From: Deltaproteobacteria bacterium
GTDB taxonomy: Bacteria > Desulfobacterota_D > UBA1144 > Nemesobacterales > CSP1-2
DNA length: 64,000 nucleotides
NCBI GenBank assembly: GCA_016187835.1
Contig: JACPIY010000028.1
Span: 33,455-97,454 of the forward strand
Direction of reading: 5' to 3'
Shown here one piece after another: positions 1 to 10,364 of this stretch; position 1 is the first letter of the stretch; the number at the start of each line of letters is the position of its first letter. Below the pieces are notes generated by a model. It was given only the letters and a program-made list of their open reading frames with translations. It was not told the DNA's origin and did no database searches. The position numbers were made by a program, and so were the translations under genes.

Positions 1-1
1 T

Positions 2-130
2 TTAATGGACGCCGAGGTTCGCGATAAACTCATAATGAACGGAAGAAAAACGGCTGAGGCTTATAGCTGTAGAAACGCGGCATTAAGGTATGAGGAGTTT
101 TATAGAGGGATTTTAGAAACTGTTAGATAG
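2..130 (+). CDS. C-terminal end of a glycosyltransferase family 1 gene (partial; the gene starts left of the window)
   Basis: Frame 2 translates to ...DAEVRDKLIMNGRKTAEAYSCRNAALRYEEFYRGILETVR*, a typical GT1 C-terminus (recalled consensus, e.g. ...RLxxNARxxAxxFSWExxAxxxxxxY). The stop is at 128-130. This is the intact template of the degenerate repeats B, C, E and D. Confidence 0.5.
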   Translation, partial: LMDAEVRDKLIMNGRKTAEAYSCRNAALRYEEFYRGILETVR

Positions 131-141
131 GGTCACGGCTG
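5..141. repeat. Repeat copy A: the intact GT 3' end, which is the template for the degenerate direct repeats bounding the downstream cassettes
   Basis: It aligns with copies at 713-843, 3178-3295 and 6664-6765. The shared core is ...gaggct...cattaagg..cggagttttatag.g.gattttagaaa.tgttagatag. Confidence 0.6.
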
Positions 142-546
142 TTCAAGTTCCGCGTTAGGCAATGTAAAGTCAAGAACTGACCCTACTACTTCTGTTCCCT
201 TGAGCCAATTTTTAACCTCGCTACAAGCTTTCTGATGATCAGAGCATATCTGGCCAGAATCTTTATCGTATTTTAGGTCTACAAAGCCTATTCGCTTTTT
301 GTTAGTCCCCTCCCGGACGCGAAGATCCTCAATGGCATCGTCGAGATCTACACGGGGGCTAAGTACATATCTGGTTTGTGTTGCCGCCCCATTCTCGTAA
401 TCTATAACCAACGTGAGGCGACAATCCTGCGATACGCGTGAAAATTCTATTGGGAGGCGTGGCCCACCACTTTGCCAAGTCCCCTCTCTGGGCAACTCCC
501 GCGGATCCCAAATCAACGATCCCCATCCTATAATTGCAATCCGCAT
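133..546 (-). CDS. ChaC-like / gamma-glutamylcyclotransferase-like protein (137 aa)
   Basis: The N-terminal motif MRIAIIGWGSLIWDP resembles the GYGSLIW signature of ChaC/GGCT-like enzymes. A single gene occupies cassette 1 between repeat copies A and B. Confidence 0.45.
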   Translation of the reverse strand: MRIAIIGWGSLIWDPRELPREGTWQSGGPRLPIEFSRVSQDCRLTLVIDYENGAATQTRYVLSPRVDLDDAIEDLRVREGTNKKRIGFVDLKYDKDSGQICSDHQKACSEVKNWLKGTEVVGSVLDFTLPNAELEQP

Positions 547-712
547 TGTGCTGACCCCCTGTGAATCGTGTGTATATTAATTAACTTGCAAAATGCAGCC
601 TGAAATTCGAAAGAACGTGTTGTGCTGCAAGCGGTTATTTTACTTAATTTTACCCACTGGATACGAAAAACCTAATTTCAAGTCAAGAGGAAGGTAAGTG
701 GCAAACCGTCCA

Positions 713-843
713 AAGAAACTTCTCGATGAGGTTAGTGAGGCTATGCGGTGTAAGCTTTTAGCTGGCGAAAAACAGCATTAAGGCACGCGGAGCTTTATAG
801 TGAGATTTTAGAAAGTGTTAGATAGAGTAACGACCAGCGGCTG
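713..843. repeat. Repeat copy B: degenerate direct repeat of the GT gene 3' end
   Basis: About 85% identity to copy A over the 3' half. It still reads ...LLDEVSEAMRCKLLAGEKQH* in frame and then decays. It is preceded by the motif aatttcaagtcaagagg (671-690), which also precedes copy E. Confidence 0.6.
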
Positions 844-931
844 TGAGTTTGGCCTACCAATGCCTGAGCAAGATCGCCCTCTCATGCTGGTCTGCTCGAA
901 CCGCTTCTTAGGCCGGTTCCCGTTGAGGTGA

Positions 932-1615
932 TCATTTCTGGTCTCCCCATTCCTTCAAGACCCTATAAACAGACTCTTCTACCTCGGTTCGCGCCTCCCT
1001 TCTATCGTAGCCTCTCGACAGAAGCTCGTCGTATTTTGTTTCCGTATGCCGAATGTGAGCGATCACCGCTAAGCGCACCGCCTCTTCATCCAACTTCTTT
1101 GCTGATGCAGATCGACCTATCCGGCCGCTATATTTGAGGCACGCATGTTCGGCTATCTCTCGCTCCCTTCCAGTGGGGCACCTGGGGAAAAGTTCTCTCA
1201 CCCGTGTGGCAAATTGTTCCGCATATTGACGGTCTAATTCCTCTCTCCGGACGGCTTCTCGCTCCCTTCGTCGAACTCTTACCTCGCTATCGGCCAAACA
1301 TTCCTCTTCTGCCCTCTCCAGTGCGCGGGTTTCGACTAATAGCCCCTGCCTTTCATACCGCTTCCGAGTGCGACTCCATTTCAAAACAACAGCGGCTAGA
1401 GTCGAGTGCTTCCGGGCACGTCTGGTAAGTGCCGCATCGCCGGGTGGAAGAAAAATCAGATGATCCAAGTCGGCGCACGCGAGACACAAGGCACCTTTAT
1501 CTCTGGTCAAAGTAATCCAAGCTTTGGGACCAAGATTTTCTCCACACTCATCGCAGGTTGATTCACGGGTCGAGATAAACACTTTGAGTTCTTCTTGTTT
1601 CATGTGCAATTTCAC
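932..1615 (-). CDS. Zinc-ribbon protein with a conserved C-terminal IRHxxTxYDxLL motif, recalled as DUF2293-like; function unknown
   Basis: There is an N-terminal CDECG...CLAC pair (CxxC-N18-CxxC). The C-terminal HIRHTETKYDELL matches my recollection of the DUF2293 signature. Confidence 0.45.
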   Translation of the reverse strand: MKLHMKQEELKVFISTRESTCDECGENLGPKAWITLTRDKGALCLACADLDHLIFLPPGDAALTRRARKHSTLAAVVLKWSRTRKRYERQGLLVETRALERAEEECLADSEVRVRRREREAVRREELDRQYAEQFATRVRELFPRCPTGREREIAEHACLKYSGRIGRSASAKKLDEEAVRLAVIAHIRHTETKYDELLSRGYDRREARTEVEESVYRVLKEWGDQK

Positions 1616-1739
1616 AATCGGGTCTCGAATTTCACGAGGTCCCGTGCCTTATAAGCGTTAAACGACTCCTTTATAATATAACTAAAACTGTTCCACTCTT
1701 TAGAAGAAACTTGTAGACCATTAGCCGCCGAAGGTTAAA

Positions 1740-2135
1740 TCAGTCCTCGCACTTTTCCGCCAAATACGGTGAGATGAGAGTTGTTACAAGTACCACTAAC
1801 CAAAGACTCCCCTTCAAAACATCATACGCTTCTAACAGCTTGCTCAACGATTCGCCCATAACAAAATGTCCAAACAAGAACTCGAATGCTACCGTCAACA
1901 GTAGCCAGATGCCTCCAACAAGCCAAGCTTGATACGAACTGTTTATACCTAAGATTGGGAAGACACCTAATGTGATGACAAAAATGATGATCGATACCAA
2001 TAATCCGCTTACCGGGTGTGCCCACTGTTGTCCCAAATGAGGAACGAGTAGCTTTTCCCTTACTCCTCCATTGAGGATCGCCAGTAGGACCAGAAGAATC
2101 CAAATCCCAATGGATTTTATTGCTATTAATGCCAC
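1740..2135 (-). CDS. Small integral membrane protein (about 4 TM helices), function unknown
   Basis: Hydrophobic segments at ILLVLLAIL, LLVSIIIFVITLGVF, WLVGGIWLLLTVAF and LWLVVLVTTLI. Confidence 0.45.
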   Translation of the reverse strand: MALIAIKSIGIWILLVLLAILNGGVREKLLVPHLGQQWAHPVSGLLVSIIIFVITLGVFPILGINSSYQAWLVGGIWLLLTVAFEFLFGHFVMGESLSKLLEAYDVLKGSLWLVVLVTTLISPYLAEKCED

Positions 2136-2208
2136 TACTTTCTCCCCCTACCGTAGTGCCTGACTTCTCAAATACCTAATAGGAACTGCTTCTTTCTTCG
2201 ACTCTTGC

Positions 2209-2646
2209 TCAATCCTCATGACATGTCGGGGGTTCGTCTGTGGGTTCACTAAAACTAAGTATGTAGCCATTGCAGTCTCGGATAGCGAACTCTCTCCGGC
2301 CATAGTGATAAACCTCCGGACCCCACTCGATTTTCACCTTGTCCACAATCCGGGCATGGAGTCCCATCACATCTTCCACACCGATGTAAAGCTGTCCGGT
2401 AAAGGCCGGGTCCGGCTCGCGCTGGTCGGTATCAACGTAAAAACTTACATGCACATCCCCATGCTCGAGTATACAAAAGGTGTGGTTGTCCTCCGGCCAC
2501 ACGCAGCCCACCATGGACCCAAGTATTTGCGTGTAGAAGTCAATCGTTCGCCACAGGTCGGTCGTCTTGAGCATGGGCCTAATCTCTTTGAATTTGACCA
2601 CAAACCGCCTCCCTAAATTGTGATAATGCCCAAGGCGGTGCTGCAT
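2209..2646 (-). CDS. VOC (glyoxalase/bleomycin-resistance/dioxygenase) family protein. The likely true start is the internal Met at about 2574.
   Basis: VOC-like fold signature and composition (…WRTIDFYTQILG…HTFCILEHGDVHVSFYV…). It is adjacent to a second VOC gene. Confidence 0.55.
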   Translation of the reverse strand: MQHRLGHYHNLGRRFVVKFKEIRPMLKTTDLWRTIDFYTQILGSMVGCVWPEDNHTFCILEHGDVHVSFYVDTDQREPDPAFTGQLYIGVEDVMGLHARIVDKVKIEWGPEVYHYGRREFAIRDCNGYILSFSEPTDEPPTCHED

Positions 2647-2648
2647 AC

Positions 2649-3065
2649 CTACCCAGCGATCTCATCATACCGGCGTCCTAGGAACTCGATCAAGCAGAAG
2701 CCGTTACCGAAAGGGTCGGCCATGTTGGCGATGTGCCCCCATTTGTGTGTCTGGATATCACCCTCAAGCTGAGCCCCGGCAGCTTTTGCCTTTTGGACTG
2801 CCGCTTGAATATCTGCAACTACGAAGTCGAGGTGAACAGGAGTCCAATGTCTTTGATAGTCGCGCCGCTGTGGAGTATTGGGAGAAACAGAGCTACCAAC
2901 GGGCTTAGCCAAGAGATAGATAACTGAGGAAGCGCCGAGCATTTCGGCTACGCTATCGTTAAAACGGCGCCCTAATTTCAGTCCGAAAGCGTTGCCATAA
3001 AACTCTATCGCCCTCTCGAGATCATCTACATCTATGTTTGCAAGTAACTCGATTGTCATGATCAT
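2649..3065 (-). CDS. VOC (glyoxalase I-like) family protein
   Basis: IDVDDLERAIEFYGNAFGLKLGRRFND...VHLDFVVADIQAAVQKAKAAGAQLEGDIQTHKWGHIANMADPFGNGFCLIEF is typical of the glyoxalase/VOC superfamily. Confidence 0.6.
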   Translation of the reverse strand: MIMTIELLANIDVDDLERAIEFYGNAFGLKLGRRFNDSVAEMLGASSVIYLLAKPVGSSVSPNTPQRRDYQRHWTPVHLDFVVADIQAAVQKAKAAGAQLEGDIQTHKWGHIANMADPFGNGFCLIEFLGRRYDEIAG

Positions 3066-3177
3066 TCTAAATAGATGTTATAGGGGATCCTTGCATCTTT
3101 TTTCTTCTTTTTGGAGTGTACTTAAAGGGGCTTCCCAACTCAAGTAAATACGAGAAAAATTACGGACCAACGCCCCA

Positions 3178-3295
3178 ATATGCTTCTCGATAGGGTTCGT
3201 GAGGCTATAAGGCGCAAGCCTACAATTGGCGAAACACAGAATTAAAACACTCGGAGTTTTATAGTGGAATTTTGGAAGGTGCTAAACAGGTTTAA
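3178..3295. repeat. Repeat copy C: degenerate direct repeat of the GT gene 3' end
   Basis: About 80% identity to copy B. It reads MLLDRVREAIRRKPTIGETQN* and then NTRSFIVEFWKVLNR. Confidence 0.6.
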
Positions 3296-3385
3296 AAAAA
3301 ATTGCACATCTATACTACTTGTATCCATAAGGCATTGGTGGTCTGGCCGAGCCAATCAGTCTCAGGACTCCACCTACTCCTTCGA

Positions 3386-4267
3386 TCATGCAGCCATAGA
3401 AGCTACCTTAGCGAAATGCTCCGACAGACGGCGACGGCCGCGGGTGGGGGCGACGCACTCGCTGGTAAAGACCCGTGCGACGAATTCCAAGACCTCTCCG
3501 TAGCGGGGGTGTAACGGCTGTACCATGGCGGCGGTAGCCAAGAGCACATAGCGAGGGATGTGAAGTATTTTGGGCTTTTTACCAACCGTCTTAAATGCTA
3601 TCCGGGCGATTTCTTCGCGGGAAAGTATGTCGGGGCCGCCGATCGAGACGGAGACATCGTTGCCGAGTGTGAGGGTCTCAACGCATGTCTCTGCAACGTC
3701 GAGCGGATGAACGGGGTTGGTCAACGCCTTGCCATTGCCGGGAATATAGATGATCCCACGGCGAGCCATGTGCAGGAACGGGTCAAAAATCGGGAACGTG
3801 CCTGTTGGGCGAACGACGCCGAAAGAGATACCGGATTTCCTGAGTTCTTGGATAACCTCTTCGTGTGCCCGGATGTAGGCAGTCCGGGCGTAGCCCGGCT
3901 GGACATGGACGGATACATAGACAAAGCGGCTTACGCCTGCCTTATTTGCGGCTTGAACGAGGTTACAATTTGCTACGGTATCCACCTTGTGGAAGCTCCG
4001 GCGGTCTTTACCAGTGAAGCCCATAGGTGCGCCGAGACAGGAGATTACCGCATCCACTCCGTCGAAGACGTCGTCGAGACTCTTCGGCTTTGTTGCATCC
4101 CCGGTTGCGATCTCGTGGGCGATACCGCGAAGCGCTTGGGCGCGGGCAGGGTTTCTAGAAAATGTCTTGACCCGATAGCCCTTTTCGCGGAGGAGTTTTG
4201 CGACCTCGTGTCCCAGCATGTCGGTTGCGCCGGCGACGAGAACTGTCACAGAGGCTGCACCCTCCAC
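3386..4267 (-). CDS. NmrA-like / atypical SDR NAD(P)-binding protein
   Basis: N-terminal Rossmann motif TVLVAGATDMLGHEVAKLLREKGYRVKTFSRNP. The start may be the GTG overlapping the upstream stop (GTGA), which would indicate translational coupling. Confidence 0.65.
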   Translation of the reverse strand: MEGAASVTVLVAGATDMLGHEVAKLLREKGYRVKTFSRNPARAQALRGIAHEIATGDATKPKSLDDVFDGVDAVISCLGAPMGFTGKDRRSFHKVDTVANCNLVQAANKAGVSRFVYVSVHVQPGYARTAYIRAHEEVIQELRKSGISFGVVRPTGTFPIFDPFLHMARRGIIYIPGNGKALTNPVHPLDVAETCVETLTLGNDVSVSIGGPDILSREEIARIAFKTVGKKPKILHIPRYVLLATAAMVQPLHPRYGEVLEFVARVFTSECVAPTRGRRRLSEHFAKVASMAA

Positions 4268-5244
4268 TGAGGATGTCGCAGCAGCACGGAGCCCATCGGA
4301 TTTCTCTCCGGGCTGAACCAGATCTGAGACCAGCCTTCCAGTTGAATATCGAACCTAATCTCTAGCTGTACCCAAATGGACAGGTTCGGATTGGCTAAGC
4401 CGAACTCAATGGGCGGCATGGGAATAAAACCTTGAAGAAAAGCGTCCTTGAAACGTGACTCGTTCTCCTCTTCTATCAAAGTCTTGACCTCTTCCCTCGA
4501 GGCAAGTACGACGGGCGTTTCTACGGAATGTAACCCAGGGACACCGAAATCATGAGGGACCAGTTGTAGCGCGGTTTGTTTAAGGTGCAACCAGCACTTG
4601 CACCATTTGTCATCGGCTGCCCATAGCCAGTGCCAATAGCCAGTGAAGCCGGTGATCTGCCCAAATAGCTCGACGATGGGCGAGGATGCAAACCGGCCAC
4701 TGCTGGAGGGCGGCCTGCGATTCGCGTGCAGTTCAAAGTGAGCGACGGCCCCGGTGCTGGCGTGGATCAATGGGTCGTCATCGTAGTTGATGCCGCCAAA
4801 GAAGTGTAACCCGTCTGTGAGAAACGCGGTTTCAATCCCGCGTGAAGAGTGAAAATCTGTGCTTGCCCACCAGAACTCCCCATCGGCTGTCGGCTGTATG
4901 GGATGCGGTTCAATGTCTTGCGGTTTTATATGAAATAAACCTTCCGGGAGCTTGAAGCTACGCGCTACTTCCAAATTGGCTTCGTATTCCTGCCTGATAT
5001 TTGCCACATGCTCATGCAGATCGGGAATCTCCTTACGCACCAATTCAATAAGTCTCTTGTTCAAGCGGCGTTCTTCTTTGGATCCCTTCCTAACCGCAGC
5101 GGTTCGTCGTTGTCGTTGCTGCAGCTCCTTCATTTGCAGGTCTCGCAGCAATCTCAATGTTTTTTTGCTATCCTTGGGCACTTGATGAGACTCGTTGTGG
5201 ACCTCATTCCTGGTCATTGATGAATCTTTTGATTTTTTTGACAT
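4246..5244 (-). CDS. Hypothetical protein with a Lys/Arg-rich coiled-coil N-terminus and a C-terminal domain of unknown function
   Basis: The start is chosen at MSKKSKD because aaggag lies 6 nt upstream. I recognise no family. Its end overlaps the NmrA-like gene. Confidence 0.45.
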   Translation of the reverse strand: MSKKSKDSSMTRNEVHNESHQVPKDSKKTLRLLRDLQMKELQQRQRRTAAVRKGSKEERRLNKRLIELVRKEIPDLHEHVANIRQEYEANLEVARSFKLPEGLFHIKPQDIEPHPIQPTADGEFWWASTDFHSSRGIETAFLTDGLHFFGGINYDDDPLIHASTGAVAHFELHANRRPPSSSGRFASSPIVELFGQITGFTGYWHWLWAADDKWCKCWLHLKQTALQLVPHDFGVPGLHSVETPVVLASREEVKTLIEEENESRFKDAFLQGFIPMPPIEFGLANPNLSIWVQLEIRFDIQLEGWSQIWFSPERNPMGSVLLRHPQWRVQPL

Positions 5245-5417
5245 GATTGTCTCCTTTTCTCGGAAATCATACTTTAGCTTCACCAAATTGTCACGACCGC
5301 TAATTATTCGTAACCGACAGCCTTGCCTTAACTTATCTTTCCAATGCGACTAGCTATTTATTAGGTGGCAGCGATTTATACAACGCTGTCGATAACCGGT
5401 CATCACACGCTTCTCGG

Positions 5418-5837
5418 TCAAAGATGCTTTGTAACCAGAACGCGACCCTTTGCCCCGACGGCGGTCTGGCCGTCTTCACCCTTGACTCGACCTCGCAACT
5501 CAACGATGTCTCCACCAAGACGGGCGTTTGAGGTGACTTTAATCACAAGCCATTCGAGACGGATGGTCTCATCGGTAAATACAGCGCGGCGGAATCGCAC
5601 CCAGAACTCGAGACCGACCATCGAGGAACCCTTCGAGAAGTGGGCCGCGGTAAGCCCGAGAAGTAAAGCGGTGGTATGAGCACCGCTCGCAATCGGGCGA
5701 CGATATCTCGTTGTTGCCACAAAAACCGGATCATGATGGACCGGGTTGTCCTCGCCGGCAGCGCGGGCGAACTCAGCCACCATCGCGGGATTGAGCGCGA
5801 CCTGAGAAGAGAATCTGTCTCTTGGACGAACATTCAT
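5418..5837 (-). CDS. MaoC-like (R)-specific enoyl-CoA hydratase / hotdog-fold dehydratase
   Basis: FARAAGEDNPVHHDPVFV is the MaoC dehydratase signature (FAxxSGDxNPxHxD). Confidence 0.65.
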   Translation of the reverse strand: MNVRPRDRFSSQVALNPAMVAEFARAAGEDNPVHHDPVFVATTRYRRPIASGAHTTALLLGLTAAHFSKGSSMVGLEFWVRFRRAVFTDETIRLEWLVIKVTSNARLGGDIVELRGRVKGEDGQTAVGAKGRVLVTKHL

Positions 5838-6026
5838 GACCGGGCTCCCTTTGCCGGATGACGCCGAACAATTAATTAGGCTACATAGGTATTCTATTTA
5901 TCCTAACGTCCCTGATATACCCTGACCCTTTGCTTTACCTAATTTGGCACACAGAATACAAAGAGCCTGATTTCAAGTCAATAGTATAAGCACGGAGGTT
6001 GAGGATGTTTATGTAGATGTAAGAAA

Positions 6027-6085
6027 TAAATTTCTCGGCATAGCTTGGGAAGCACTGCGTTAAGTGCCGCTACCTCGCCATAGAT
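6027..6085. repeat. Possible fifth, highly degenerate copy (E) of the GT 3'-end repeat
   Basis: aaatttctcggcatagcttgggaagcactgcgttaagtgcc is about 60% similar to the start of copy B. It is preceded by gatttcaagtcaatag (5969-5984), the same flank motif that precedes copy B. Confidence 0.25.
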
Positions 6086-6094
6086 GATCCAGGC

Positions 6095-6465
6095 TCAACG
6101 AGCCTCCGCCAGCCACTGCCAAGTAAAGAAAGACAAAACTATAGAGCGCGGCAACTCTCCTTTATTCAGTAACGGCCAGAACTCCTGTGGTACGTGAACC
6201 ATAAAGTAGGCTACTGCCATCTGCCCAGAAAGTATGAAGGCAACGGGCCGGGTGAAGAGTCCAAGGAGTATAAGGAGCCCACACCGAAGAGTTCCAGCAC
6301 CCCAGCCATTCCCATCAACGACATTAGAGAAGGAGTCTGCTGAGCGGGCGGGATGGAGAAGAGTTTCTGACCTCCGTGCTGCATGAATAGCAAAGCTGTA
6401 GCGATCCGCATGACGCTGAGAAAGCACCGGGACAACTTAGAGAAGAATGAATTTGGATTAGCCAT
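6095..6465 (-). pseudogene. DoxX family membrane protein, split by a frameshift (ORFs 6211-6465 and 6095-6427 in different frames)
   Basis: The N-terminal part MRIATALLFMQHGGQKLF and the C-terminal part LLILLGLFTRPVAFILSGQMAVAYF are both DoxX-like but lie in different frames. Confidence 0.55.
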
Positions 6466-6663
6466 ACGATCCCTCCAGATATTAAGGACTTGTTTAGTAT
6501 TATGCTAAAAAGCGTTGTCTAAACGGTTAATCGTGCGAATAAAACTCGTATAATCATCGTTTGGTATGCTACAGAAAAACGTTGCACCCTAGAATTCGTT
6601 TGGCATTGTAATCAAAATATCTCTTTGAGTCTAAGAGCTGAGGGATCATGGAGTGATCTCAAT

Positions 6664-6765
6664 AAACCTCTCAATCGGGTTCGCGAGGCTAATTTCGAGC
6701 AGAGTTATTACTGGTGGAGCACCGCACTAAGACAACCAGAGTTTCATTAAAAGCAAATGTACTCG
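6664..6765. repeat. Repeat copy D: the most degenerate direct repeat of the GT 3' end
   Basis: ctcaatcgggttcgcgaggcta aligns with ctcgatagggttcgtgaggcta of copy C, and ...ctggtggagcaccgcactaagacaaccagagtttca aligns with ...attggcgaaacacagaattaaaacactcggagtttta. Confidence 0.5.
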
Positions 6766-6935
6766 GCTCATGAGCGAAACTCATGGCCTGTCCAGACCCG
6801 AAATTCTTGGGTAGTACATCAGTCTTGCCGGTGGACAGGAATAAGATGAGATTCTATTTCTGAAAGCTTACCCTGAGTTTAGCCCGAGGAGTCTTCGAGA
6901 TAACGAGCCGTCAGAACCTCTTTTACAAAAGGTTT

Positions 6936-7811
6936 TTAAAGATTAAGAGAAGAGAATTTATTTATCCTTTCTAACAGGTCACTGCTGATTTCGCCATGTG
7001 AGACTTCCTCTACCGGCCCTCGCATTCTCAATGACCAGTCCTCTCTCACTTCAATTTGAAGCTCTCCGCCCGGCATCGAAACGGTTATATAACTATCTGT
7101 AAAACCGTTTTTAACACACGCCGCTGCTACGGCACATGAACTGCTTCCCGATGCAAGCGTATAGCCGGCTCCCCGCTCCCAAATGAGAATATCTACTCTC
7201 TCTTTCGATATGACTTTGGCAAATTGAACGTTAGTTCGCTTGGGAAAAAGAGGATGAGTCTCAATTATGGGACCGAGTTTTCTCGTATAACCTTCATCCA
7301 GTTCGTGGGCAAAAACCACACAGTGTGGGTTTCCAACCGAAACCGCCGTGAATTTAAGTATCTCGCCGTTTATTCTAATTTCTTCACCCACTACTTCTCT
7401 CTCTTCGCCTTCAACGGGAATTAGATTGCTCCTAAAAGTGGCTTCTCCCATCTCTACCGTGACAAACGATGCTCTATCGTCTTTGGTCTCGAGCTCCGCT
7501 GTGACTATGCCCCCGAGTGTGTCTATCTTGAATGAGCTTTCTCTTGTATAACCATGCTCGTAGAGAAATTTGGAGAAGATTCTGAGCCCGTTTCCGCTCT
7601 TTTCCGCTTCGCTTCCATCCGGGTTAAAGATCATAAGCCCAAAGTCCGCTTTCTCGGATGGGACGAGAAGAAGTATGCCGTCTGAGCCTATTCCGTAATT
7701 TCTATGGCAGAGGAGTCTTATGACATATGGAGTAAGTTGAAAGGTAACATCGGCTTTATCGAGAACTATATAATCGTTTCCCAGTCCATGGGATTTAACA
7801 AATCGGTTCAT
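6936..7811 (-). CDS. dapF: Diaminopimelate epimerase
   Basis: MNRFVKSHGLGNDYIVLD and GNPHCVVF are the DapF signatures. Confidence 0.9.
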   Translation of the reverse strand: MNRFVKSHGLGNDYIVLDKADVTFQLTPYVIRLLCHRNYGIGSDGILLLVPSEKADFGLMIFNPDGSEAEKSGNGLRIFSKFLYEHGYTRESSFKIDTLGGIVTAELETKDDRASFVTVEMGEATFRSNLIPVEGEEREVVGEEIRINGEILKFTAVSVGNPHCVVFAHELDEGYTRKLGPIIETHPLFPKRTNVQFAKVISKERVDILIWERGAGYTLASGSSSCAVAAACVKNGFTDSYITVSMPGGELQIEVREDWSLRMRGPVEEVSHGEISSDLLERINKFSSLNL

Positions 7812-7964: not shown

Positions 7965-8375
7965 TTAAACTATTTCTTCTCTGTAGCCCTCTGCTCCGCG
8001 GAAGATAACTTTGAATAAATCGGTTGTGGAAATGATGCCTACCAATTTTCTTCCATCCATGACGGGAAGATAGCGGACGTTCTCCTCATACATAATCCTT
8101 ACCAGGTCGTCAATGTTATCCTCAGCCTGTGCGCATTGAACACTCTCGGTCATGACCTCGTTTATCTTTGTCTTCTCCAGGTCTTTATCCTCCGCGACTA
8201 CGCGGGAGAGAAGATCGCCCTGAGTAAATATGCCAAACGTCGGCCTTGGGGTTTGAACAATAAGAGCGCCCATATTGTGCATTGACATGATTCGAACTGC
8301 TTCCTTCACCGATGTGCTCTCATCAACTGAGAGGACGTCTTTGGTCATTATCTCGTGAGCTTTCATAACTAACAC
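7965..8375 (-). CDS. CBS-domain pair protein
   Basis: Two CBS motifs (IMTKDVLSV... and VMTESVQCAQ...RYLPVMDGRKLVGIISTTDL). Confidence 0.75.
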   Translation of the reverse strand: MLVMKAHEIMTKDVLSVDESTSVKEAVRIMSMHNMGALIVQTPRPTFGIFTQGDLLSRVVAEDKDLEKTKINEVMTESVQCAQAEDNIDDLVRIMYEENVRYLPVMDGRKLVGIISTTDLFKVIFRGAEGYREEIV

Positions 8376-8589
8376 CTCCTTAATATTATTTTAATGAGGC
8401 TTGTGCTTAATTTATAAACCAGCTTTATCCGTAGAGAGGCAGTCTTGTTATTCAACCAATATAATACATGCAAATGCAAACTGTTATGGGTTTATTGTAA
8501 ACAAAAATTTTATTTTGTACTAGTTGCTGAATATGAGATGAATAAAAGAGATAATGGCATGATTTTAAATGCAACTTTAACTCGATAAT

Positions 8590-8900
8590 TCCCTGTATCC
8601 CTGCTACAGGGTTTGCACTATTATTCCGAGCACATTCACCCTTCGGTTACACTCAGGGCATGCTTGGTTCAGTGTAAACTCAGCGAAGCAATCTCTCTTT
8701 TCGTTCATTTGTCATGTCGAACGCACGTGAGACATCTAGATTTCTCGTTTCACTCGAAATGACAAACTCAGCATCGGATTGCTTTGTCGCAGACTCTGCT
8801 CTGAGCCTGCCGCAGGGCTCCTCGCAAAATGACCAAGGCAAACGTCTGTGTTCACATGACGATACCCTGCAGCTTGCTGCGCGCTGATTCACTGTTGAGT
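8590..8900. repeat. Divergent member of the modular intergenic repeat family (see 46184 and 54664)
   Basis: It shares modules with the other copies: ctcagcgaagcaatct vs ctccgcgaagcaatctgaca; cccttcggttacactcagggca vs ccttcggcggagtttacactgagca; ctcgaaatgacaa vs gtcgaaatgacag. The 70-aa ORF at 8680-8892 lies inside it and is probably spurious. Confidence 0.35.
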
Positions 8901-8954
8901 TTAAGTTAAGGGTAGAGGAATCCGTGTTGCTTCTTAGTCATCATAAGATTGTAC

Positions 8955-9790
8955 TCATGGTGTCAATCCTTTAGGCACGCCGTTGGGAAAGTTCTCTTGA
9001 ATTGCCAGTTGAATTCGCTCAATGCGATTCTCTGGGTTGGGATGAGTGCTGAAAAATTCCGGCTGGCGCGTGCCTCCGGAGGCTTCCTCAAGAATCCTCA
9101 TCATTCCGACAAGAGCGCGTGGATCATAGCCAGCATCAGCCATGAAGCGTACGCCCAAAGTGTCTGATTGCAATTCGTCTTCGCGACCATACTTCATGTG
9201 GGATCATTTGGGTCATAAGTTGACATGACCAATGCTCCGGTAAGTCCCTGAGTCAGCTCTTGTTTGGCTATGCGCTGCGCGCTATGTCTTGCAACAACGT
9301 GCCCGATCTCGTGTCCCAAGACCCCCGCCAACTGTCCTTCGGTTTCGAGACGTTTGAAAAGTCCGGCTGTAATAAAAACCGGTCCCCCAGGCAGGGCAAA
9401 TCCATTCACTGTTTGCTCGTCAGCCAGCAAATGAAACTCAAAAGGGTAATTGGTTTGTGCGGCAGCACTGTTGGCAACCAGTTTTTTGCCTACGGCATCA
9501 ACGATTGCTTGGGCTCGTTGATCGGGATGTTCTCCGCCATATTCTGCTGTCATTTGTGGTGCAGCTTGGAGGCCTAGTGCGATTTCCTGCTCCTCGGTGG
9601 TGTTGATGTACTGTTTTTCACCTGTGATGGGGTTGTAGACGCTGGACATGAAATACGAAAAAAGTGCAAAAAGAGCCATGACCAGCCCAATGAGCAGGCG
9701 CGCTTTGCCAGAGCCACCCCTTGGACGGGTAGATGATGGGAAGGCGCGTTGGCTTAAAATCTCTCTTGTTGAAGGTCTTTGTCTGCTCAT
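8955..9790 (-). pseudogene. M48-family Zn metallopeptidase, split by a 1-bp frameshift near 9195
   Basis: HExxH motif GHEIGHVVARH in ORF 9194-9790. The downstream ORF 8955-9197 carries EDELQSDTLGVRFMADAGYDPRAL. The junction acatgaag looks like a deletion from acaatgaag. Confidence 0.6.
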
Positions 9791-9872
9791 GGTTCCTCCT
9801 TTTCATTTTGGGGGCGGTTGCCGCTTGGCAAATGTAAGGGATTTAGTTTACGTTTCGTATTTTACACATTGA

Positions 9873-10364
9873 TTATTCCTCGACAGGGACAAATTCTTCA
9901 ACTTCCAACCCCTCATAGTTGCCCCCAGCGAGTGCGCCAAAAATAATATGGCTTAGTGCCATGATCCAGCTTCGCATCGGAAAGAACCAAGGAAAGATCA
10001 AGGTGAAGGTGTAAAAGTTAATCAAATATAGGGCAAGCCCAAACAAAGCCCCGCCGAGAATCCCGACAAGTAGTCCCCAACGGTGGAATATAATAGCTAG
10101 TAAACAGGGGAAGCCTATGGAAAGAGGAATGTGAACGATAAGTGAAACGATAAAGATTGAGATATCAAACGTGGCAGGCGGAGGCAAAACGGTTTTGCCC
10201 ATCACTATAGAAGCAATTATACGAACTATAATCCAGGGACTGCCGAGATATATGGCAGTCAAAATCATGTTAATCACAAGGAAGATAATGCCGCTAATCA
10301 CACCAGCCCACACCGCCGCGCTCCAGTCAACAACTTGTCTCATTTTAGCTGCTGCTTGGCTCAT
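9873..10364 (-). CDS. Polytopic membrane protein, function unknown
   Basis: Four to five hydrophobic helices. Confidence 0.45.
   Translation of the reverse strand: MSQAAAKMRQVVDWSAAVWAGVISGIIFLVINMILTAIYLGSPWIIVRIIASIVMGKTVLPPPATFDISIFIVSLIVHIPLSIGFPCLLAIIFHRWGLLVGILGGALFGLALYLINFYTFTLIFPWFFPMRSWIMALSHIIFGALAGGNYEGLEVEEFVPVEE

Follow-up and report, generated by a model that had tools for sequence, protein, structure and literature searches.

Positions 1 to 6774 of a 64,000-nucleotide stretch of DNA from a Deltaproteobacteria bacterium (assembly GCA_016187835.1, contig JACPIY010000028.1; the whole stretch is called the window in the following) hold an array of small gene cassettes, which are separated by degenerate direct repeats related to the 3' end of a glycosyltransferase (GT) gene. 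The boundaries of the cassettes can be read as fossils of an integron platform that was fused to the end of this target gene, the array is devoid of attC sites, and near-identical strains reveal cassette turnover at one 9-nt core within coding sequence. On balance, we lean towards a model of serial, core-specific integration, in which a GT gene of the MSMEG_0565 family in a Dadabacteria-like bacterium received, at its 3' end, integron-derived cassettes that were small, circular and non-autonomous; the window would represent the distal part of the array. Serial integration at the 3' end of a gene is well established for tRNA, tmRNA and a few protein genes, and integrons are equally familiar; the locus presented here links the two in an uncultured phylum. 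The original prediction, which was made from the letters of the window, had proposed repeated site-specific insertion restoring the GT end. The core of this idea was supported by variable cassettes and a fixed 9-nt core; the nature of the repeats, the start of the array and the decay of the repeats turned out to be different.

The glycosyltransferase target and its fixed breakpoint

The left edge of the window (positions 1-130, plus strand) is occupied by the 3' end of a 92-aa open reading frame (ORF; MBI2486257, HYW01_04720), a 5'-truncated and interrupted GT remnant, which we call psiGT. It gave a weak Glycos_transf_1 match at profile positions 127-171/172 and contains the core AGTTTTATA at 96-104. 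Thus, the ORF initially regarded as the target gene is merely a displaced pseudogene copy. The search to the left of the window, which the original prediction had suggested, located the intact gene beyond a toxin-antitoxin cassette: it encodes a 390-aa MSMEG_0565-family GT (MBI2486254, P0042) and belongs to the same contig as MBI2486257. In the Logan contigs L037 and L038 (designations of this kind refer to the sequences retrieved for comparison), which stem from the same samples, the intact GT gene is followed by a PemK/MazE pair (MazEF) on the opposite strand. The JGI relative L031 contains, in continuous sequence, the intact GT end, MazEF and psiGT. The Logan contigs L037 and L001 do not overlap and leave a gap of about 27 nt at a palindrome; the order GT-MazEF-psiGT-window was deduced from the homology to L031 and the numbering of the NCBI accessions (MBI2486254/255/256/257...265). 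The window thus appears to start inside an array of at least six units.

Directly beside the first position of the window, on its left, an insert of about 150 nt (L031 1100-1215, L037 2330-2415) disrupts psiGT between the GT-like segments '..LPVIASDIE..TEY' and '..DGENS'. The insert holds the palindrome GGGCTCGTTCCCCGAACGAGC, at which the Logan contigs break; it could be a small insertion resembling a miniature inverted-repeat transposable element.

A scan of metagenomes with a pattern of the repeat core gave only three loci; most of the informative contigs were obtained by exact-protein look-ups. Dadabacteria-like contigs with the same psiGT (76-89% identical) or an orthologous GT gene carry different minus-strand cargo and further repeats. 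In L029, L030 and L032, psiGT is followed by a 240-aa gene, a repeat, a 185-aa gene, a VOC fragment, a 241-aa gene, a repeat and a DUF2293 gene. L034 has the GT gene, a 70-nt remnant of a gene for a 137-aa protein, a repeat, a trypsin-like protease and another repeat; L041 has GT, MazEF, a repeat, a GNAT gene, an arm remnant and osmC. The order in L042 to L045 is GT, remnants, a 144-aa gene together with a 1234-aa DEAD/DUF559 helicase, a repeat, DUF2293, an integrase remnant, further genes, a repeat and an ankyrin gene. L039 (GT, cupin, GNAT, osmC) contains no repeats, and in L048 the GT gene has a third kind of end (v3, see below). Variable cassettes at the same GT 3' end, the outcome that the original prediction had named as confirmation, were thus found in L029-L033, L034, L041, L042-45 and L048. 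As known from arrays grown by accretion, the units are flanked by direct repeats of the target 3' end, the proximal gene copy is intact, and the occupancy of the site varies among relatives with a fixed crossover point.

This crossover point is defined by pairs of contigs with near-identical GT backgrounds, which diverge at the 9-nt core AGTTTTATA encoding the GT codons E-F-Y (Glu-Phe-Tyr). L048 and L036/L031 are 95-97% identical over the 200 nt up to the core; right after it, identity drops to the random level (23-35%). L034 and L042 share 1,039 identical nucleotides of GT, followed by a patch of 97 nt, which is 20-27% different and ends at the core; beyond the core, no differences are left in the right arm and the neighbouring gene remnant. 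For L037 and L031, identity is 83-90% to the left of the core and 95-100% to its right, through the whole MazEF cassette. To the left of the core, the psiGT sequences of the window and of L033 share 85-89% identity; on its right, they have nothing in common from a distance of about 30 nt onwards. More generally, MazEF cassettes are 92-98% identical where the flanking GT sequences are 78-90% identical; in the comparison of L041 with L037, the values are 92% for MazEF, 82% for the entire GT and 78% for its 3' 249 nt. The GT orthologues agree with this picture: they are conserved through ..YSW.NTALRH.EFY and possess heterogeneous tails directly after EFY, as is expected if the last nine codons were replaced repeatedly. 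Several orthologues of the set P0008-P0126 (e.g. P0028, P0030 and P0071) also have low-complexity inserts of 30-45 aa near residue 45, which are unrelated to the array.

Chimeric repeats and remnants of an integron

Direct repeats related to the GT 3' end were detected by means of nhmmer at 1-139, 698-834 (c1), 3162-3295 (c2) and 6648-6774 (c4), which corroborates their predicted existence; no further copy was found in the entire 64 kb. The left-edge copy matches c1 with an E-value of 1.5e-11 and c2 with 1.1e-5. The mutual match of c1 and c2 is much stronger (E 3e-17), and c4 (6651-6774) matches the internal copies with E-values of 4e-6 (c2) and 3e-4; it gave no significant match to the GT end or the left-edge copy. 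Hence, the alignment of the copies to the GT end, which had been proposed as a check, links c1 and c2 to this end directly and c4 only to c1 and c2. As c1, c2 and c4 are nearer to each other than to the GT end, a simple decay of identity with distance, as predicted originally, fails. A queried additional copy at 6027-6085 was not significant (E 4-5); it adjoins a 51-nt promoter-type repeat (639-689 and 5934-5984, 78% identity) and looks like a degenerate integrase-stub arm only. The repeats are mutually 60-80% identical, and the series is better described as a mosaic of left arms of GT type or integrase-stub type and right arms of types v1, v2 and v3. The predicted compositional shift was reproduced: the GC content is 0.498 for positions 1-6800 and 0.418 for the rest of the window.

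For the comparison of arms, the copies were anchored on the motif AGYTTYAT. The left arm of type A is the continued GT coding sequence; type B is common to the three internal copies of the window and to copies of L029, L034, L041 and L042. Right arms come in at least three kinds, namely v1 (..GTTAGATAGAGTAACG), v2 (..CAGTTTAAAAAA..AATTGTGCAT..CCATAAC) and v3, which occurs in L048. All four combinations of A or B left arms with v1 or v2 right arms are present; psiGT, for example, has an A-type site with a v1 right arm.

By homology, the B arm is the 5' end of an integron-type integrase gene, and each internal repeat is a chimera, in which an attI-like region, a promoter-like region, a start codon and about 20 integrase codons are fused to the last ~26 codons of GT. 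In c1, an attI-like remnant with a divergent promoter-like region (547-697, type I) precedes the integrase stub (698-757, plus strand), which consists of GTG and about 19 codons (VANRPKKLLDEVSEAMRCK, 698-754); the GT segment (758-832, plus strand) comprises the last ~26 codons in the GT frame (..RKTALRHAELYSEILESVR*), with the core AGCTTTATA at 791-799 and the v1 tail. In c2, a truncated attI-like region with a box resembling an intI promoter (3066-3161, type II; E 2.6e-25 including the stub) is followed by a stub (3162-3221, plus strand; TDQRPNMLLDRVREAIRRK, 3162-3218), whose start codon is mutated to ACG. Its GT segment (3222-3330, plus strand) has the core AGTTTTATA at 3255-3263 and a v2 right arm (..EFYSGILEGAKQV*, then GTTTAAAAAAAATTGCACAT..CCATAA), which is common to the psiGT ends of L029-L032 and the sites of L034, L041 and L042. 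Module c4 (6466-6774, plus strand; E 4.5e-9), the oldest one, has kept nearly all of its attI-like region as well as an integrase stub (6648-6707); its GT segment, with the core AGTTTCATT at 6740-6748, is decayed. A further, degenerate boundary module (5838-6094) contains the type I promoter repeat (promoter part E 2.3e-4) and a weak remnant of an integrase stub at about 6027-6070; its GT-end part is missing. The junction between stub and GT is identical in all copies. The peptides LLDEVSEAMR and LLDRVREAIRRK, which had been read as in-frame GT sequence, both belong to the N-terminus of the integron-type integrase.

The origin of the stubs is demonstrable at the nucleotide level only, via the longer remnants of L042 and L046. 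L042 contains a 45-codon PF13495 remnant (MEQRPKKLLDQVLEAIWRKCYSNRTEQSYAVWIKRYILFHNKRHPQEMG), which is homologous in nucleotide sequence to the B arm; in the B copy of this contig, ATG-MEQRPKKLLDRVREAIGRK gives way to GT sequence (..AYSWR..EIYSGILKGVR*). The best 120 matches to the stub were all PF13495 fragments of at most 86 aa. In annotated plasmids, genes with the N-terminus of the stub are designated 'integron integrase'; the identity is 85% for a Kovacikia plasmid and lower for class 1 integrons, thousands of which match in plasmid records. The composite module as such had no nucleotide match in the plasmid database. L046 is a genuine, degenerate integron: an intI remnant of 74 codons and an attI-type interval are accompanied by a cassette of 159 aa, at the end of which lies a textbook attC. 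This attC is 90 nt long, and its folding energy amounts to about -50 kcal/mol if RNA parameters are used and to -37 if DNA parameters are used (z-score -3.6); none of 200 shuffled sequences folded as well. When the attI-intI 5' region of L046 was used as the sole query, it identified 3098-3227 (E 3.9e-13), 619-759 (E 1.9e-6) and 6522-6691 (E 5e-4) in the window, and every match stops at intI codon ~21. A degenerate remnant of an integron-integrase N-terminus (MENKPKLLEQVR..FHNKRH..) was also noted on the minus strand of the Dadabacteria-like contig L009 (JBQTHB010000005.1, 16286-16441), about 5.4 kb from dapF, which indicates that integron remnants exist elsewhere in this lineage.

Upstream of the stub, homology of the attI-like interval stops at a conserved AAC, corresponding to GTT on the cargo strand, and unrelated cargo lies beyond. 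In the window, this boundary is found at 578-584 (AATTAAC), 5863-5869 (GCCGAAC) and 6517-6524 (GTCTAAAC). Thus, one hallmark of integrons, an attI region beside the intI 5' end with a G|TT cassette boundary, is present. Promoter-like sequences of the form TTGACT-17-TATYCW face the cargo on the minus strand at 686-658 (TTGACT-17-TATCCA) and 5981-5953 (TTGACT-17-TATTCT); they match the consensus, and such sites are no more frequent in the region than expected from shuffled sequences. The attI-like interval also contains a conserved inverted repeat (L046 632-656, L042 7134-7158, window ~6528-6556), which may be a binding site of a regulator or of the integrase. In L046, its sequence TTATACGAAC-TAAA-GTTCGTATAA corresponds in form to the LexA (Cheo) box of Gram-positive type, CGAAC-N4-GTTCG; in L042, it reads TTATACGGAA-TTAT-TTCCGCATAA with two compensatory changes.

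A complete integron consists of an intact intI gene, encoding a tyrosine recombinase with the IntI-specific domain, an attI site, the promoter Pc driving promoterless cassettes, and attC sites. The latter are imperfect palindromes of 57-141 nt, which fold into hairpins and occur once per cassette. No ORF of a tyrosine recombinase was found in the 64-kb window by phmmer with approximate XerD and IntI1 queries, and a tblastn search with full-length IntI1 gave N-terminal matches only. The window holds stubs of about 20 codons, and the longest integrase remnants outside of it are those of L042 (45 codons) and L046 (74 codons). A scan of positions 1-7000 for paired RYYYAAC...GTTRRRY motifs yielded no candidate and recovered the attC of L046 as a positive control. 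Single-strand folding of the repeats was not detected on either strand (z-scores between -0.4 and +1.7), and intergenic regions folded no better than shuffled sequences (z ≥ -1.7); an attC per cassette, as required for an integron or a cluster of attC sites lacking an integrase (CALIN), is therefore missing. No tRNA, tmRNA or other Rfam family matched in the window. The original statement that no integrase, attC-like hairpin or tRNA is visible thus holds for hairpins and tRNAs; with respect to the integrase it is incorrect, because 5' stubs of its gene are contained in every internal repeat. Conceptual translations of the repeats did not match Pfam even at E ≤ 10. The numbers of promoters and terminators in the region were not above shuffled expectation, and a role of the repeats as terminators or promoters was rejected for this reason. 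In integrative mobile elements exploiting Xer (IMEX), each junction carries a dif-like site of 28 bp that has a XerC and a XerD arm; an inspection of the conserved block by eye gave a partial resemblance of TGTTAGAT to a XerD arm, and neither a XerC arm nor a convincing dyad.

Models for the growth of the array

In the model that we favor, crossover would take place at or beside the core AGTTTTATA. To the right of the core, an incoming unit would provide its own version of the last ~9 GT codons with a stop codon, a short tail (v1, v2 or v3) and then, on the opposite strand, one to four genes; the GT-like arm on the left of its core would come to lie beside the displaced old GT end. In the main family of cassettes, this left arm is preceded by the start and ~20 codons of the integron integrase, the attI-like region and the promoter-like region facing the cargo, an arrangement that suggests that the family goes back to an integron platform in which the integrase gene had become joined to a GT 3' end. 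The fusion, which connects attI, promoter and intI codons 1-20 to GT codon about -26, would have arisen by one founding illegitimate event and would have been propagated with different cargo. The cassettes presumably move as circles, and a site-specific recombinase acting in trans would catalyze the exchange, possibly by IntI-type cutting at G|TT of GAGTTTTAT. Since each insertion would restore the GT end and push the older end outward, age should rise toward dapF. The observed polarity fits: MazEF lies beside the intact GT gene and is nearly identical across lineages, and in the unit on the dapF side, DoxX is a pseudogene, the neighbouring module is truncated and the repeat is the most decayed of all. 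Note that MazEF units have no integron part and are flanked by GT ends nevertheless, which points to the GT-like segment, and not the integron remnant, as the common denominator.

Several observations weigh against this model. Neither a circular junction nor an empty site was observed, and an intact integrase was found neither in the window nor in any retrieved locus. The core has no obvious dyad symmetry, and the displaced GT copies vary in length (about 75, 115 and 470 nt). The structure to the left of the window was joined from short Logan contigs and not read as continuous sequence. The 97-nt patch distinguishing L034 and L042 resembles gene conversion and shows that homologous recombination also acts; the truncated gene for the 137-aa protein in L034 and L042 and the VOC fragment in L029 are clearly illegitimate junctions. 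Finally, identical junctions of stub and GT fit a single founding fusion and are by themselves no proof of mobility.

The main alternative, an account without a dedicated recombinase, which we consider conceivable and yet rather doubtful, would start from a former chromosomal integron just downstream of the GT gene (GT → cassettes ← attI, intI →). A single illegitimate tandem duplication would have joined intI codon ~20 to GT codon -26, and unequal crossing-over would have amplified the product. The ~130-nt repeats would then have undergone RecA-dependent recombination or gene conversion, in part with DNA taken up from relatives, and deletions would have contributed to the present variable array. 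Constant stub::GT junctions are what one duplication junction would leave behind, and the conversion-like patch within otherwise identical GT sequence, the abundance of illegitimate junctions and gene fragments in the arrays and the lack of an integrase in the window and the retrieved loci point in the same direction; the attI-type GTT, which bounds the cargo on the promoter side, is consistent with former integron activity. However, the array terminates beside dapF in a copy of the GT end and not in attI-intI, GT-end duplications also flank the MazEF cassettes without an integron part, and three independent comparisons share one 9-nt breakpoint, with no scatter. Moreover, repeats of 60-80% identity are poorly suited to RecA, none of the cargo genes occurs in more than one unit, and all units are devoid of attC.

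Two further explanations were rejected. It is hardly credible that the locus is an ordinary sedentary chromosomal integron or a CALIN with the repeats as attC sites: co-oriented cassettes with typical integron cargo (VOC/glyoxalase, DoxX, GNAT, toxin-antitoxin), N-terminal integrase remnants with attI-like sequence and heptamers resembling RYYYAAC/GTTRRRY at the module ends would agree with it, but the folding analysis and the motif scan, which were positive for L046, found no attC, and the repeats are demonstrably coding fragments of GT and intI. Integration as in Sulfolobus spindle-shaped viruses (SSV), whose attP is located inside the integrase gene, so that the gene is split and int(N) is left beside the displaced target end, is very improbable as well. 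It would account for the direct, co-linear linkage of an integrase stub with the displaced 3' end of the target and for a junction at the short shared motif 'TTAT/Y-S', which is constant in all copies. Yet none of the GT ends is fused to an int(C) fragment or has one next to it; each of them closes with an ordinary GT C-terminus and a stop codon, beyond which convergent cargo lies, and strains diverge at the EFY core, about 45 nt further downstream than the stub::GT junction.

The favored model of serial integration has precedents in the accretion and cis-mobilizable elements discussed for ICESt/CIME at the fda 3' end of Streptococcus (PMC7563491) and in the tandem ssrA-specific genomic islands of Dehalococcoides (PMC3146451). 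As in these systems, the insertion site is located within the 3' end of a gene, which is reconstituted by the incoming element; successive elements are set apart by degenerate direct repeats of the target end, the content varies between strains, and older elements without an integrase would depend on one in trans. In contrast, the units described here are tiny (0.6-3.4 kb, one to four genes) and contain no integrase or transfer genes, and their scar is a fixed fusion of an integrase stub with the target, in which the integrase is of the integron type and accompanied by an attI-like region. With integrons, composed of intI, attI, Pc and attC cassettes and including sedentary chromosomal integrons and CALINs (PMC4889954), the array shares small co-oriented cargo genes of kinds common in chromosomal integrons, an integrase N-terminus, attI-like sequence and promoter region homologous to L046, a conserved GTT, which bounds the cargo on the attI side, and a candidate crossover at a G|TT. 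It differs by lacking attC hairpins and an intact intI, by a module of attI, promoter and intI stub at every cassette boundary instead of once, and by a shared recombination site that is double-stranded protein-coding sequence, the GT 3' end.

It has been reported that the integron integrase inserts cassettes outside att sites (bioRxiv 10.1101/2022.09.11.507474) and that its requirement for the GTT cleavage site is relaxed (PMC2811028). Given these reports, an IntI-type integrase acting at G|TT of GAGTTTTAT would be an attractive candidate for the recombinase: IntI can use genomic sites that share little beyond G|TT, and the GT core GAG|TTTTAT would be compatible with this. In those cases, however, the incoming cassette has a folded attC, which does not exist here. 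A more far-reaching version, which we regard as unlikely, is a live integron-like gene capture, in which a double-stranded composite module (attI-like region, promoter, intI stub and GT 3' end) replaces the folded attC, the cassettes carry their own promoter, and an integron-type integrase encoded elsewhere exchanges them at the core G|TT, each insertion rewriting the last nine codons of a conserved gene in a housekeeping cluster. If an integron-type integrase indeed drives the turnover, integron enzymes could build cassette arrays without attC hairpins, and this would explain why integron finders depending on attC models miss such arrays. A full-text search of the literature for Dadabacteria plus integron gave nothing relevant, and no description of such arrays was found. 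For annotation, the lesson is that short ORFs of metagenome-assembled genomes (MAGs) labeled 'phage integrase N-terminal SAM-like' or 90-aa 'glycosyltransferase' can be junction scars marking cassette arrays.

Cargo genes and the right flank

The ORF listing reproduced the prediction that every cargo gene is on the minus strand. The first one (133-546) encodes a hypothetical protein of 137 aa, and its stop codon is 2 nt from that of psiGT. It is followed by a DUF2293 protein (932-1615), a 131-aa membrane protein (1740-2135), two VOC/glyoxalase proteins (2209-2646 and 2649-3065), an NmrA-like/SDR protein (3386-4267), a 346-aa protein (4246-5286), a MaoC-like dehydratase (5418-5837) and DoxX (6095-6465). 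The latter is split over two frames (overlapping ORFs 6095-6427 and 6211-6465) and thus a pseudogene. Pfam confirmed the labels DUF2293, VOC/glyoxalase (both proteins), NmrA/SDR and MaoC as well as the N-terminus of DoxX; the 131-aa and 346-aa proteins had no family match in Pfam, and the 137-aa protein, which had been labeled ChaC-like, had none in Pfam or NCBIfam. The functions of the cargo (VOC enzymes, SDR, MaoC, DUF2293, toxin-antitoxin genes) are a minor point.

Some of these genes recur elsewhere. The DUF2293 gene also follows the orthologous repeat in L029 (90% identity at the nucleotide level) and L042, and a 55-70 nt 3' remnant of the gene for the 137-aa protein adjoins the intact GT gene in L034 and L042. 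The first 49 codons of the VOC gene at 2649-3065 are found in a different context in L029 and L032 with 90% nucleotide identity; the fragment (L029 2179-2328, L032 2010-2159, corresponding to window 2929-3061) lies directly downstream of the unrelated 241-aa gene. Its displacement argues for illegitimate rearrangement within the arrays. In L042, the unit at 2967-7098 encodes a 1234-aa DEAD/Helicase_C protein with a DUF559 (Vsr-like endonuclease) region and a 144-aa coiled-coil protein, and resembles an anti-phage defence module. L048 contains a 60-aa GIY-YIG ORF (3470-3652) between an AllH-like gene and GT, which is absent from this place in L034, L039, L041 and L042.

The array is terminated by a conserved chromosomal flank, dapF (diaminopimelate epimerase, 6936-7811, minus strand), which is 72-85% identical to dapF of Candidatus Dadabacteria and Thermodesulfobacteriota MAGs. 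The dapF neighbourhoods of 21 related genomes contain no GT, cargo or repeats. As synteny around dapF is not conserved in these relatives, they are unusable as empty-site controls. The interval between the last repeat and dapF (6775-6935) contains an 8-bp inverted repeat, CCTGTCCA...TGGACAGG. Shortly after the stop codon of dapF, there is a hairpin with a T-run behind it, probably the dapF terminator. The cumulative GC skew of the window has its minimum near 9 kb (~8000-10000), a possible turning point close to the array, and rises steadily up to 64 kb; most genes beyond ~9 kb may share the direction of replication.

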